From the NCBI GenBank assembly GCA_951406725.2, contig OX597831.1, forward strand, positions 79,856,001-79,920,000: a DNA stretch of 64,000 nt, written 5' to 3'. Every line of letters begins with the position of its first letter. Position 1 is the first letter of the stretch. Under the pieces are notes generated by a model, which was not told the origin of the DNA, made no database searches, and worked only from the letters and a program-made list of their open reading frames with translations. The position numbers and the translations under genes are program-made. Shown here piece by piece: positions 3,626 to 59,290 of the stretch. This DNA is from Octopus vulgaris (lineage: Eukaryota).

Positions 3626-4569
3626 CAAAATATGTATACATATGTGCTTATATATATATATATATGTGTGTGTGTGTGTGTGTGTACAGTATCCAATTGG
3701 TTTGACGTCTTAAAGACAATATAGATTTTAAGTTAGATGGGTTCATACTGTCCGTATCCTTTCCTTTCGATAAGGGCAAGAGATTTTGTAACATTTGCAA
3801 CTCTGAACGCTTCCATATTCTCTTCTCTAAGAATCACCTTGTTAACACACTTATAGAGCGATCTTACAATTGTAAACACTGGCAGAAACATACCTTTAGC
3901 TCATATAAGTGATTTTGCCAGTCATTATAATTTGAACAATTAGTTTAACCTGCACTCCACTTCAATAGAGAAATCTCTTCCTAAGCCTTTGAACGTTCTT
4001 TTAATCAACGTATCCCTCCCTCTCTATTTTTTCCCTATTTAATATCCCTTTAACCCTTCTCTTCCTAATATATGCCTTTGACGTCAAATCTACTAACGGT
4101 TATTTTTAAATACTTAATAACGTTCTGTTTATCATGTAGGCAGCCATCGTAATTGTTATAAGGTCTTGTTGTTGAGATAGGCTTTCTTTCTTTCCCGATG
4201 AGAAGATTGCATCTTACACCGTTTATTCCTTTGGAATAGAACCATGTTGTCTTCGAAACATATGTCGAAAGTAAAGGAATTTTATTAACATCTTCGTTCA
4301 ACTCCATTTATTTATCTATTCATATATATATATATATATATATATATATATATGCTCAGACATACACGTTTCAAGCCTACGTCTCCGTAGATTGTTAAAA
4401 AAAAATTAACCTTATTACATGTTCGTCCCTTATTAGTGTCTCATCCGTGATGTCTATATAACTTGACCAGTCCCAAGGCAACAAGTAGGCAATCTGTTTA
4501 TATCCACATCAAGTCTAATAGCTTGAGACAACTGGAACTAGTAATTTGTTATAAAGTAAAAGCAAGCAT

Positions 4570-5015
4570 TGGCAGTGTATTTAAGAAGTTCGCTTCGTAA
4601 CCATGTGGTTTCAGGTTCTGTCCCTCTGTGCAGCACCTTGGGCAAGTGTCTTCTATAACCCTGACCGATCAAAGCTTTCTCAGTGAATTAAGAAACTATG
4701 TGGTAGGCCATCGTCCTGTATGCCTGCCTTTGTGTTCGTTTTTGCTCCAGCTCTGCCGGTGTTAATTTCTCAATGTTTTGTCCGCCGAGGTCGACTTTGC
4801 CTTTCTTACTTTCGGGGTTGATAAATTAAGTACCTGTTGCGTACTGGGGTCGATCTAATCGATTGCCCCCACCTTCCCCAACATTTCGGGCCTTGTACCT
4901 CGAGTAGAAAAGAATTCCTCAGTCTCCTTGTAACTTAACGGCTCAACAAAAGATCCCGATAGAACAAGGACCGGACTTAATATATGTTCTAGGTCGATTT
5001 GTTCGACTAATTTGT
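4570..5015 (+). mobile_element. SINE family B with a nested 5'-truncated family A copy (~4780-4915)
   Basis: Family B head (GGTTCTGTCCC...CACCTTGGGCAAGTGTC) and tail (GTAACTTAACGG...GATAGAA...GTTCGACTAA) are interrupted by CCGCCGAGGTCGACTTTGCC...GAGTAGAAAAG. Confidence 0.75.
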
Positions 5016-5159
5016 ATACAGGTGTGTCATATACACACAGGTAAGATGTCGTTCAACCAAATGCCATGTTATAAAAAAAGTCACTTGTTCAAAGTGCCGA
5101 GCAGTAAAATCGAACCCAGGACCATTTAGTAGTGAAACAAATTTCTTAACTCTTCAACG

Positions 5160-6810
5160 ATCGTCATCGCCATCCTTCTCATCATCCTCATTTTTATCAT
5201 CATCGTCATCATTGTTACACCTTCTTCGTCATTACCGTAATCGTCGTTGTCATCGCATCTTCGACTTCGTCCTTATCATCATCATCGTCATTATTATCAA
5301 CGTTGTGATCATGCCTTCTTCGTCATCATCAGCCATTATCATCATCATCATCATCTTCATCGCCGTCATCATCAGCGTTATCATTATCACCGTAATCGTC
5401 GTTGCCATCACATCCTCATCGCCGTCATCCTCATCATCATCATCAACAGCAGCAGGAAATTAACTACAGACCCAAGGAAAAAATTAATTACACCATCACC
5501 GCCATCAAAATCACAAATACTCTCTCCCCCACCTCCTCTTTCACCGCCACCAGCAAGAACACCAACACCAACACCACCCACAGCAACATTATCGTCATCA
5601 TCATCAGCAGCAGCAAAGCTAACAGCACCAATATCTGCAAATTAGTAACAGCCATTATCACAACCATCATCATCATCATCACCGCCATGGTCATCCCATC
5701 ACCATCCCCATCACCTCTACCACCATCAATGCTATCATCATCATCATCCTCATCGACAGCAGTCATGCTATTGTTATTCCCGACACCCTCATTGTAATCA
5801 GCATCATCGGCCACATCGCCGTCATTGCCATTCTCATCTGCTTCATCACCGTCATCATCGTCATCATCATCGTCATCATCAATGATTATTAATATTCATC
5901 ATCATCATCATCGTCATCATCAACAGTTATTAATATTCATCATCATCGTCATCATTCATCACCATTTTCTTCTTTTTCCCTTTCTTCCGCATAATCAGCA
6001 GCAGCACCATCATCATCATTTGCTTTCGTTCTCCCTTTTTCATTCTCCTCCTCCTCCTCCTCCTCATCATCAGCATCATCCTCAACATCATCGTTACCAA
6101 TATCACCGTCAACAGCATCAATTATCATCATTGTAATTATTATTCTCCGCCTCTTCCTCATCCCCCTCCTCCTCCTCCTAATCATCATCGTCGTCGTCAT
6201 CGTGAAAACCGCCATCGTTATCAGCAGCATCACCAATGCTACAACCATCAGCAGTAGCACCTCCACCACTACCACCACCATCCTCATTATCGCCTTCATC
6301 AACACCACCCGTACCGCCGTCACCACCATCAACACATCATCATCATCATCAACAATCATTATCATTATAATCAATAACATTGTCATTACTATCATCATCA
6401 TCATCATCATTCACTACAACCTCAGTCATGGCCATCCTCAACGATGCTTCTGCCAACACCGCCATCACCACCACCACCAATGCCATCACTACTACCACCA
6501 CCACCACTACCACCACCATTACCACCATCAGTACTATCAGCACCATCACTACCACCGCTAGTACCACCATCAGTACCACCACCATCATCATCATCGCCAT
6601 CATCATCATTAATACCGCTACTACCACCACTAGCAACACACCACCTGCACCACCACCAATACCACCATCATCATCACTACCACCACCACCAAGGCCATCA
6701 CCACCTCTACCATCACACACCACCACCACCATAATCTCCATCACCACTATCATCATCATTCCCACCGCTGCCACCGCCAACCACCATGACCACCACCATC
6801 AACAGTAACT
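5160..6810. repeat. Compound imperfect (CAT)n/(CAC)n trinucleotide repeat field
   Basis: Direct reading; source of the poly-H/I/S/T/P ORFs. Confidence 0.9.
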
Positions 6811-7399
6811 CCGCTTCTGTGTTAAACTCACTGGTCAATATTGGCTGTACAATTTCACAGACGGTATTTCTAATCAAGTCTTTGAATAAAGACTACGGTG
6901 ATTAATTAGTCAATAGACAGCAATTAATCAGGAAATCATCAGATGGGGCACTAACCGCCACCACAAACACCGCCGCCTCTAGCGTCATACCTTCATCAGC
7001 ATCATTATCAACATCATCATCATCATAATCATCTTCGCTATTCCTCATCACTACCGCCGCCGCCGCCACCACCGCCAGCAATAACAGTTACAACAACAAA
7101 GGCAGCCATAACTGCATCAATACGAGGAGGTCATTCCAGATATAGCAACGGTTTTACCGTTTCTCTTCTGTGTAGCAGAACATGAAAAGCGGTAGCCACA
7201 ACAACAACAACAACAATATAAGCAGTTGTAGCAACAGAAACAATATCACAAGCAAAAACGACAACAGCAACAGCAAAAAAAAACCCAGCAACAATAGTAA
7301 CGGCAACAATCAACAGCGGCGGCAGCAGCAGCAGCAGCAGTAGTAGTAGTAGTAGTAGTAGTAGTAGTAGTAGTAGTAGTAGCAGTTATAATGGTGACG

Positions 7400-57189: not shown

Positions 57190-57503
57190 ATAAGTTTTGG
57201 CCACTATAGGCCCAGGCCATGTCTAACTTAATGGCACCACTTGGTGAATTCTTTTATTCATAAAGGTGGTACCATGGCTCACTCAAGCAAAGAGTTATTA
57301 TTGTTGGAGACATATCCGAGTGTAGGAGGTTAATCCGGGATTTTGAAGGGAAATTTGTCCAGGGAACTTTTGAATTTTATGGGATCTGTTTACGTTTTGA
57401 TGTATTTTGATATAGTATTAAAGAGAGCAGAAGCGGCGGGGATAAAGTAGTTGTGCTGTAATGTTGCTATGTTTCTTGAGTTCGATTCTTGTAGTGGGCG
57501 GAT
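57190..57503 (-). mobile_element. CR1/L2-group LINE 3' end fragment (same family as 45596-45870)
   Basis: ALFNTI...FKSSLDKF..KIPD.PP..GY....NSLL; shared UTR block GGTGC.ATTAAGTTAGACAT.GCCTGG. Confidence 0.72.
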
Positions 57504-58839
57504 AACAAAAGTATATTAAGAAAGGTTAAATGGATCCCCTTTTTTAAGCCAACACAAATTAAGTGGTGATAGGGAAAATGCACAAGGAGAGCAGGGGTTT
57601 ACAAATCTCTAGGCTATGGTACCCAATTTTATTTTATGGTTTCTCGCCAGAATAGAATAGATTTGATAAAATAAACCTTACCGTTGTGTACAAGCATCTT
57701 ACAATGTGTATACAAACGAAAATACATACGGTATTGTGATTAAATGCAGCATGAACAACAATGAATAATCGCCTCAATAAACACTTGAATCCTTTGAGTA
57801 GTTAGAAAATATTCGTTTTATATAGTAGATAAAAACCGGTGTTGTTGAAGAAAATATATTAGTGTTTCTCTCCAAAGTACGATTTTGGAAACATCACAAA
57901 TTATATTGGATAGAACGCAGTCACAACAAAGAGGTCAAGGAGACACCTACTATAGAATAAACCCAAAAAAAAAAAAAGAAAAGAAAAGAGAAAACTTTTG
58001 GAAGCCCGTTTATTATTTTTTTTTTTAAACTAAACTAGACAGAACATGGAGTGTTTGGTTAATAATGATAATATGGCTGATTCAACTCCTGGAGGGAGCG
58101 GCGTTTGTACAAAGCACTTTGTTACAAGTTGCTCCAGTTATTCACACAGACACACATATATATATATGTATGTATGTATGTATGTATGTATGTATGTATG
58201 TATAAACTTTAGGCTATTTCTGTTGCTTTTCAATAAAGTGTATATGTGTATGTGTGTATATATATATATATATATATATATATATATATATACACACAAA
58301 TGTTTGGGCTTCGTACGAAGCAGTAGGACTGAACCCAGAACAGCATGGTCACAATGCGAGCTTTTACGTACACCGCCATTCCTGTGCCACAGAGCAAAGT
58401 TTAATGTCCATTTGTATACCGATCACCACGCGCAAAGAATTGTTTATTTTTCTTTTGAGTGTTTATGTATGTGTGAATGTGTGAGTGTGTGTGATTGCCT
58501 AGACGTTTTTATGTGTATGTATAGAGATATATATATTGGTGTGTGAGTTAGTGTATGTATTTAGATATGGTTATATATACTTAGTTTTATGTGTATGAGC
58601 ATGTGTGTATATATAGTTTATTTTTATTTTGTTTTTGTTTTTGTTTTTTGTTTTTGTTTTTTTGTTTTTTGTTTTTGTACATCTTTAAATATGAGAACTT
58701 TAATAATAGGTTTCTTTATATTCAATTGTTTATAGATTATATATAGATTATATATAGATTATATATATTTATATTTTTCATTGATAATTTTATTATTTTA
58801 AACTTATATTTTAATATATTGATATTTTAGATCGAAAAT

Positions 58840-58882
58840 CCACCTGACGAATGTCATTGAAGACATGAAACGATTGTAGTGG
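58840..58882 (+). ncRNA. Minimal type I hammerhead ribozyme motif, canonical core
   Basis: CCAC-CTGACGA-ATGTC-ATTGAA-GACAT-GAAAC-GATT-GTA-GTGG: stem I CCAC/GTGG, stem II ATGTC/GACAT, short stem III AC/GT; predicted cut after 58878. Confidence 0.82.
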
Positions 58883-59097
58883 CGGTTTATTTCTTTATAT
58901 TAAAAATTTTTATGTATTGATTAAGTCTTTCCTTGTTTGTTTTGCAAAATAGTGGTTTTGTCTCGAATTAATATTATATAATATTTTACTATAAAATTGG
59001 ATTTAATCCTAAATCTGATTTTTTCCCTGTAAATTTGGATTTATTCCCTAATATTTATTATTATATATATATATATATATATATATATATATATAAA

Positions 59098-59290
59098 CGC
59101 CATGATAGATCGCTAGACAGTACGCATTCTTTATTTGCTCTCCTTGCTTCTATCTGTGTTCCTTTCTGTAGAAGAGCGTAGGCTCGAAACGTTAAAGACT
59201 TTTTCAATTCTCGAGAGTTATACTAATACATCTGTTTGCTGTCTACACCACCTGTCTTCGAACTTTGTTCTTTTTTGTGAATTCTCCCAA
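59098..59290 (+). mobile_element. Short (TA)n-flanked element with a core-mutated hammerhead (59166-59193)
   Basis: CTGTAGA-A-GAGC-GTAG-GCTC-GAAACGTT; same family as 25255-25470 and 34690-34826. Confidence 0.6.

Follow-up and report, generated by a model that had tools for sequence, protein, structure and literature searches.

The question raised by this locus is whether the short hammerhead ribozyme sequences that lie scattered in it are mobile units of their own or the remains of larger elements. The locus is a stretch of 64,000 nucleotides of Octopus vulgaris DNA (assembly GCA_951406725.2, contig OX597831.1, forward-strand positions 79,856,001 to 79,920,000), here called the window, and all positions given are those of the window. 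An initial annotation described four hammerhead families (H1 to H4) beside (TA)n microsatellites and explained them as non-autonomous, retrozyme-like derivatives of Penelope-like elements mobilized in trans. The motifs are probably 3'-terminal, 5'-truncated fragments of several endonuclease-encoding Penelope-like lineages that were copied into (TA)n. They are most likely ordinary tail ends of Penelope, of a kind already described, rather than a new class of mini-elements. The copy at 4195 is the most telling in this respect, because a remnant of an open reading frame (ORF) lies upstream of it and because its family, canonical in the core, occurs in many copies and ends at (TA)n.

Hammerhead motifs of the window

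Type I hammerheads were sought with a strict descriptor consisting of the CUGANGA core, an optional bulge after A9, a helix II of at least 3 bp, GAAA, H17, a self-complementary helix III and a helix I of at least 3 bp, and the null was 404 local dinucleotide shuffles of the window. Three matches were found, at 34708 (+, family H1), 58844 (+, H3) and 37848 (-, H4), against a shuffle mean of 0.032 (maximum 1). When one core mismatch was allowed and stems of at least 4 bp were required, 59166 (+) and 4195 (+) were added, and the five matches compare with a mean of 0.116 (maximum 3). The setting with one mismatch and stems of at least 3 bp is less decisive (five matches versus 0.79, maximum 4). 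The frequency above dinucleotide-shuffled sequence on which the initial annotation depended is real at both the strict and the relaxed setting. Both cores, an NUH site and helices I and II are present in 34708, 58844 and 37848. A single core change separates 4195 (U4C) and 59166 (A6U) from this state, and the other six of the eleven sites lack one or more of these features. In total the window holds about 11 type I hammerhead motifs, intact or decayed.

Every site of the initial annotation is present at or near its coordinate, although its nine hammerheads are in unequal condition: three are intact, one is core-mutated (59166, +) and five are decayed. The core of 25327 (+) is kept, with helix I gone and a G-U pair at the base of helix II. 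Helices I and II are both degraded in 40550 (-), and the core of 35022 (-) reads C-C-G-A-U-G-A (U4C) with helix I gone. The core of 11642 (+) has decayed to three mismatches, and nothing but the GAAACGU half is left of 4372 (-). H4, listed at 37761 with no strand, exists and lies on the minus strand (37853-37760). The hammerhead at 4195 (+) had been overlooked.

Chance matches in low-complexity DNA are an extremely improbable source of these motifs. The window consists of microsatellite-rich animal DNA in which several short repeat families are dispersed, and 35% of its length is masked as tandem repeat; no Rfam match identifies the motifs (among the best 150 of 570 Rfam matches, none is a hammerhead), and GAAACGT (ACGU) half-sites are only modestly enriched (12 versus 4.8 in 300 shuffles, maximum 12), all of which would suit chance. 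It may still hold for the relics 4372, 33890 and 9843. For the five descriptor matches, however, it is refuted by the shuffles. In addition, the stems of each family keep their base pairing with different sequences, and at 4196 the majority base of the 4195 family returns the core to its canonical form (see below). Palindromic half-sites of 8-10 nt number 12 in the window and 2.3 in shuffles (maximum 7, 300 shuffles).

The minimum-energy homodimer is an exact double hammerhead for 4195, 37848 and 58844. The bulge at 9/10.1, the G10.1-C11.1 pair and the palindromic 15.2-16.2 positions of the minimal Penelope hammerhead are found in the H1 copies 34708 and 59166. The three intact motifs correspond to 47 per Mb, a value with a wide interval, as it comes from a count of three in a single selected window.

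A weak extra candidate at 33890-33920 (+) has a whole core and a 9-nt palindromic helix III; its helices I and II are unformed and it fails the descriptor. Further relic candidates at 623 (-), 9843 (+), 22851 (-), 24144 (+) and 51893 (-) also fail it and were left out of the count. Two of these possible relics lie in 9800-9860 (+), where a hairpin stands ahead of GAAACGT, and in 22805-22860 (-), where a core is followed by a GC-rich hairpin.

An endonuclease-like remnant upstream of the 4195 hammerhead

The complete type I hammerhead at 4190-4271 (+) has its core at 4195, GAA at 4255 and H17 at 4266. Helix III is an 8-nt palindrome, helix II is stretched to about 50 nt, and the element reaches (TA)16 at 4322. 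Some 285 nt ahead of it, in the same orientation, lies an ORF remnant of 68 codons (3706-3909, +), its 5' side cut by a microsatellite, which resembles the C-terminus of a Hydra-clade Penelope-like endonuclease. In it CxxC, E, N and CxH follow one another as Craig et al. 2021 describe for the end of these endonucleases; this motif has a single match in the window and appears in 1 of 200 shuffles. By eye it also resembles the Hydra alignment in the supplement of PMC8557442, in which an octopus family, Hydra-1_Obim, is included. Among the protein searches with this remnant and with 716-910 (see below), a Pfam match to KDM6_GATAL was below threshold and was rejected. The statement of the initial annotation that all of its short elements lack ORFs stands for the nine listed sites (seven were translated, with no clear remnant upstream) but fails for 4195.

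Contigs of four public runs were placed on 3690-4321 at 80% likeness. The numbers matched were 2170, 2078, 318 (run X9) and 140 (run X14), and all 29 bins were covered. T at 4196 accounts for about 98% of the depth (263269 of 267762 in run X1, 159285 of 162419 in run X3). As T dominates the other copies at this position, U4C is private to the 4195 copy and the core of the family is canonical; the idea that U4C is a natural variant of the family was rejected. At 3739 the majority base of the other copies turns Gly into Trp, the residue in the Hydra alignment. Three X14 records (3802-4183, 3961-4212 and 4017-4314) overlap and bridge the end of the ORF to the hammerhead; X9 and X14 can only be guessed to be RNA, and their contigs were not counted as evidence of transcription. 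Loose ends of other copies behind 4308 continue into (TA)n. Towards the 3' end the summed depth of the family exceeds that over the ORF: in X1 it drops eightfold right after the stop codon (104557 to 13070), and it peaks over the hammerhead and the tail.

The family is present in high copy number in the public contigs, ends at (TA)n and has the canonical core. It shares with the Hydra clade the CxxC and CxH around E and N (by motif, with no database match), the insertion at (TA)n (4322 in the window) and a hammerhead near the 3' end. The part of such an element that would carry the RWK and DKT motifs, the CxCX5C linker and the reverse transcriptase is absent from the window. The fixed ends and absence of a coding remnant by which a non-autonomous element would be recognized are not seen in the 4195 family. 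Mobilization in trans, as initially proposed, finds no support here, since an endonuclease-like C-terminus lies upstream of the hammerhead and is bridged to it by contigs. A short word carried by loose ends before 4249 recurs in loop 2 of 37848, which hints at a relationship between the H4 lineage and the 4195 family.

Families, ends and insertion sites

The several families of the initial annotation are upheld. The H1 copies 25327, 34708, 40550 and 59166 are mutually related (z 6-24 in pairwise comparison) and about 73-80% identical over the aligned parts, and the two H2 copies (11642 and 35022) are identical at 149 of 205 positions. H3 and the 4372 relic pair with nothing above z 4, and H4 has only a weak pairing (z 5.3, with 11638).

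The intact minimal hammerhead of H1 (34703-34739) is part of a copy at 34692-34825 (+) that begins 16 nt ahead of the core and has (TA)n on both sides. Two further H1 copies lie between two (TA)n tracts, at 25240-25470 (+, core 25327) and at 59096-59289 (+), where the A6U hammerhead occupies 59162-59197. The H1-like copy with core 40550 (40410-40586, -) stands head-to-head with the 3' tail of a 59166-type copy (40590-40677, +), which is cut at about the GAAAC half, ends at a microsatellite and is identical to 59190-59288 at 69 of 86 positions. The H1-like relic 4372 (4354-4400, -) is reduced to GCTT-GAAACGT and shares (TA)16 tail-to-tail with the 4195 element. The H2 copy at 11504-11760 (+) retains a whole helix III palindrome (GAA 11670) and meets (TA)n at 11761; the other H2 copy (34909-35135, -) has a (TA)n tract in common with the 34708 element. 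H4 is a 127-bp insert between two (TA)25 tracts (37726-37852, -) that begins at helix I, with an intact hammerhead whose helix II is stretched to about 60 nt. H3 (58840-59061, +) comprises the intact hammerhead 58840-58882 (core 58844, H17 58878) and an AT-rich tail to (TA)17 at 59062; its architecture is Hydra-type in a by-eye comparison with the parts of File S2 of PMC8557442 that were consulted.

The position beside (TA)n that had been remarked upon is confirmed: (TA)4 or longer lies within 230 nt downstream, on the motif's own strand, at 10 of the 11 sites and at 30% of random non-repeat positions. The binomial tail, calculated by hand, is about 5e-5, an overstatement because tracts are shared and nine sites were preselected. 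Tail-to-tail pairs across one tract are formed by 4195 (+) and 4372 (-) and by 34708 (+) and 35022 (-), whereas 58844 (+) and 59166 (+) follow one another head-to-tail. The distance from the 5' end to the core is 4-5 nt in 37848, 16 nt in 34708, about 70 nt in 59166 and about 87 nt in 25327. The window H1 copies accordingly lack the common 5' end that a non-autonomous Penelope derivative would be expected to have.

That the motifs are monomers shed from tandem non-LTR (long terminal repeat) retrozymes, which spread via circular RNA, is very unlikely. Retrozymes carry type I hammerheads, are present in molluscs and are known to leave dispersed monomers (Cervera and De la Pena 2020, PMC7229834; Li, Clavereau and Pollet 2026, preprint 10.64898/2026.07.22.740005), and like the sequences of the window the animal forms are short and non-coding and have kinship to Penelope terminal repeats, as far as the parts of these sources at hand extend. 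They are, however, defined by tandem hammerhead units and circular RNA, and the window has single copies of unequal length, with no hammerhead unit in tandem in the repeat masking or among 150 of the 200 repeat matches. The epithet retrozyme-like is therefore not borne out by the window, in which the tandem arrangement that defines retrozymes is missing. None of the five joints listed for the 4195 family is a go-back joint. The hammerheads of the window are minimal, bulged or long-looped, whereas those of retrozymes are described as canonical with contacts between loop 1 and loop 2 (PMC7229834), and one copy of the window, 4195, is joined to an ORF remnant.

The H1 core in metagenome contigs

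The core pattern of H1 was found at 97 loci in metagenome contigs. A Penelope-type ORF remnant lies on the same strand in 15 of the 88 loci with at least 250 nt upstream; about 11 of these are distinct and 3 are the queries themselves. The remnants mostly stop about 100 nt ahead of the core, with variable 5' ends. Upstream of the core, two loci (L052 and L019) have a Cys-rich linker along with motifs resembling GIY-YIG, both of Neptune type; the Pfam GIY-YIG match to such a remnant (E 0.0018) is below the cut-off. Sequences resembling the GIY-YIG endonuclease and CX2-5CxxC linker of Neptune-type elements are thus seen upstream of the H1 core in metagenome loci, and are absent beside the H1 copies of the window. 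A second hammerhead on the same strand occurs in only 2 of the 97 loci, 867 and 2478 nt away. The metagenome loci are an analogy to the H1 copies of the window, not their parent.

The main metagenome family of 74 loci was reduced to 62 by removal of common downstream flanks and to 61 by the requirement of at least 60 nt upstream. The upstream sequence shared with any other copy is 15 nt or less in 30 of the 61, 16-60 nt in 13 and more than 60 nt in 18, some of the last being leftover duplicates or common inversions. Ten of the 30 short-sharing copies have an inverted copy directly upstream. This accumulation of starts at helix I may be genuine, or it may be an artefact of a search that finds only copies with a whole core. 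Many copies about 70 nt long come from a metagenome family in which the H1 core is combined with an endonuclease remnant. Because such an endonuclease-bearing family leaves equally short copies, the shortness and the lack of an ORF are what 5' truncation yields anyway. It was also observed among the loci (L001-L097; for example L014, L056, L057 and L021) that in one family every second copy starts no more than 15 nt from the core, and that many metagenome copies are head-to-head inversions joined at the hammerhead.

H4 and H1 might alternatively be true non-autonomous mini-elements, fixed short units with helix I as their start, transcribed in that form and mobilized in trans by a Penelope-like protein, although this is unlikely. 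The starts of the 37848 insert and of 34708 close to the core, with (TA)n flanks on both, and the 30 of 61 metagenome copies with short shared upstream sequence speak for such units, and non-autonomous Penelope derivatives are already described in the literature consulted. The starts of the H1 copies in the window nevertheless differ (about 16, 70 and 87 nt ahead of the core) and their identity is only about 73-80%; the family of the short metagenome copies also has longer members that reach an endonuclease, and a third of the short copies (10 of 30) are head-to-head inversions in a search limited to whole cores.

Origin of the motifs and proposed mode of insertion

The derivation from 5'-truncated Penelope-like elements starts from direct observations, namely the motifs, their excess over shuffles, their orientation to (TA)n, one ORF link and one high-copy family. 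The proteins of Penelope-like elements introduce nicks into AT-rich DNA, from which reverse transcription is primed close to the RNA 3' terminus, and 5' truncation does no more than shorten the product (PMC11167929, in the parts consulted). By the proposed mechanism, the protein of the element would nick (TA)n and reverse-transcribe from the RNA 3' end. Most cDNAs would end after 100-400 nt, and with a hammerhead 50-200 nt from the 3' end this would be the part most often left. Repeated use of one (TA)n tract would produce the tail-to-tail and head-to-tail pairs. The motifs of the window would then be left over from numerous truncated insertions, drawn from five or more lineages, and most would be dead. 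The ribozymes are predicted to cleave only as dimers, so that single copies would be largely inactive and would need a partner RNA. To judge from their architecture, H3, H4, H2, 4195 and 33890, with a palindromic helix III of 8-9 nt, would be of Hydra-clade type, and H1, with ACGU and a bulged A, would have the minimal form found elsewhere behind a Neptune-type endonuclease.

Several observations weigh against this derivation. The ORF link in octopus concerns one family only; that of H1 comes from the DNA of other organisms, and H2, H3 and H4 are devoid of any. Four database searches with 3706-3909 gave nothing useful, so that its assignment consists of motifs and a by-eye comparison. Between the H1 copies of the window and the metagenome families nothing but the core is shared, and most of the latter have no (TA)n at their end. 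No Rfam hammerhead reaches the gathering threshold across the window, and none appears at E ≤ 10 in 58780-59290. For the copies of ACGU type, among them 34708, the minimum-energy dimer is not a double hammerhead. The (TA)n sites are not independent, pairs sharing tracts and nine having been picked by a reader who had noted the repeats. The depth gradient of the 4195 family is equally expected from several subfamilies with common 3' ends, and contig depth is no copy number.

A bolder extension of the derivation from truncated elements is regarded as rather doubtful. It holds that helix I, the 5' edge of the hammerhead, is a preferred end of the cDNA, that ribozyme-bounded copies of 70-130 bp therefore arise in large numbers, that some of them are self-standing in this genome and that about 100,000 intact hammerheads occur genome-wide. 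H4, with its 60-nt helix II missed by Rfam, would be an example of a self-standing short element, and the density would be above published totals as far as these could be consulted. Any such extrapolation would rest on one window chosen for its richness, with mostly decayed copies.

Relation to known systems

The link between Penelope-like elements and hammerheads, which the initial annotation had also called known, is documented by Cervera 2014 (PMC4209133) and Craig 2021 (PMC8557442), both consulted in part. Cervera 2014 reported a bulge behind A9, a palindrome and a predominance of single copies 'probably related to truncated PLEs', as well as minimal hammerheads that cleave weakly, as dimers. 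In Craig 2021 the target of the Hydra clade is (TA)n, and canonical hammerheads sit close to the 3' end of its elements. The traits treated as distinctive in the initial annotation (the bulged A, the palindromic helix III, the several families, the single copies and (TA)n) all fall within these two reports. The group of octopus is not named in the text of PMC4209133 that was consulted, and the local density looks above the genome totals quoted there, for one selected window.

With the Hydra-clade elements of PMC8557442 the sequences have in common CxxC and CxH around E and N, the (TA)n target, a hammerhead about 100-200 nt from the 3' end and a helix III palindrome of about 8-9 nt. By eye, the Hydra-1_Obim motif listed there has no equal among the hammerheads of the window, and the supplement text searched, in which long lines are truncated, does not contain the peptide RFCNIC; on these two grounds the families of the window look distinct from Hydra-1_Obim. 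The helix II of 50-60 nt in 4195 and 37848 differs from the Hydra loop 2 of 3-10 nt in File S2, in which long loops occur in other clades. Poseidon of Anolis (Frangieh et al. 2024, PMC11167929) likewise has a minimal hammerhead in its terminal repeat and inserts into AT-rich DNA. According to the parts of that report consulted, its ribozyme was assayed experimentally and cleaves only with the protein of the element, cleavage being unneeded for insertion in vitro; the hammerheads of the window are known from sequence alone.

The Penelope-like families of the window are probably uncatalogued. These families, the helix II of 50-60 nt in 4195 and 37848 and the possible break at helix I may be new. 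A search of the open-access literature yielded no cephalopod hammerhead survey and no report of preferred truncation at helix I, and the text consulted of the O. vulgaris repeat annotation (PMC13282606) has no mention of ribozyme or hammerhead. As it stands the locus is a minor addition, consisting of probably uncatalogued Penelope-like families with hammerheads undetected by Rfam, two of which have a helix II of unusual length. A break at helix I, if real, could mark a structural stop or a template switch and so give the hammerhead a testable, non-catalytic role in Penelope transposition. It would matter because cleavage is dispensable in vitro (PMC11167929, consulted in part). If tens of intact hammerheads per megabase hold genome-wide, a strand-bias test in introns becomes possible.

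Other features of the window

The initial annotation also placed a Penelope GIY-YIG remnant at 690-932, which all searches left unconfirmed. The segment shows ITC-x2-F-x3-YIG-x-T in one frame, and a pattern written after it had been viewed has one match in the window and none in 200 shuffles. Pfam, a word-indexed search, tblastn and a profile of the metagenome endonucleases gave no support, and phmmer returned tandem-repeat proteins only; three such matches were rejected as repeat proteins with scores summed over stretches. A decayed GIY-YIG endonuclease (716-910, -) is plausible and unproven, by motif resemblance only, and is joined to none of the hammerheads. Downstream of it a GC-rich open frame of 193 codons (1-579, -) runs off the window edge, with no match in Pfam or Atlas.

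A full-length match to U2 small nuclear RNA (snRNA) lies at 45898-46089 (+, 124.6 bits). Its branch-site pairing box is changed, and it is likely a pseudogene or variant; a short repeat (46053-46220) overlaps its 3' end. A non-LTR retrotransposon remnant at about 27350-30850, which we take to resemble R4/Dong elements, stands between (TAA)n tracts (zf-RVT, E 1.4e-5), and its 3' end is duplicated in direct and inverted orientation. At least three dispersed families resembling short interspersed elements are present in about ten or more copies each (for example 1028-1196, 3460-3621 and 14434-14607), together with a tRNA-like pair (41024-41211 and 56738-56921). A short element with apparent inverted ends, similar to miniature inverted-repeat transposable elements, occurs in three copies (3213-3397, 43610-43752 and 50516-50704).

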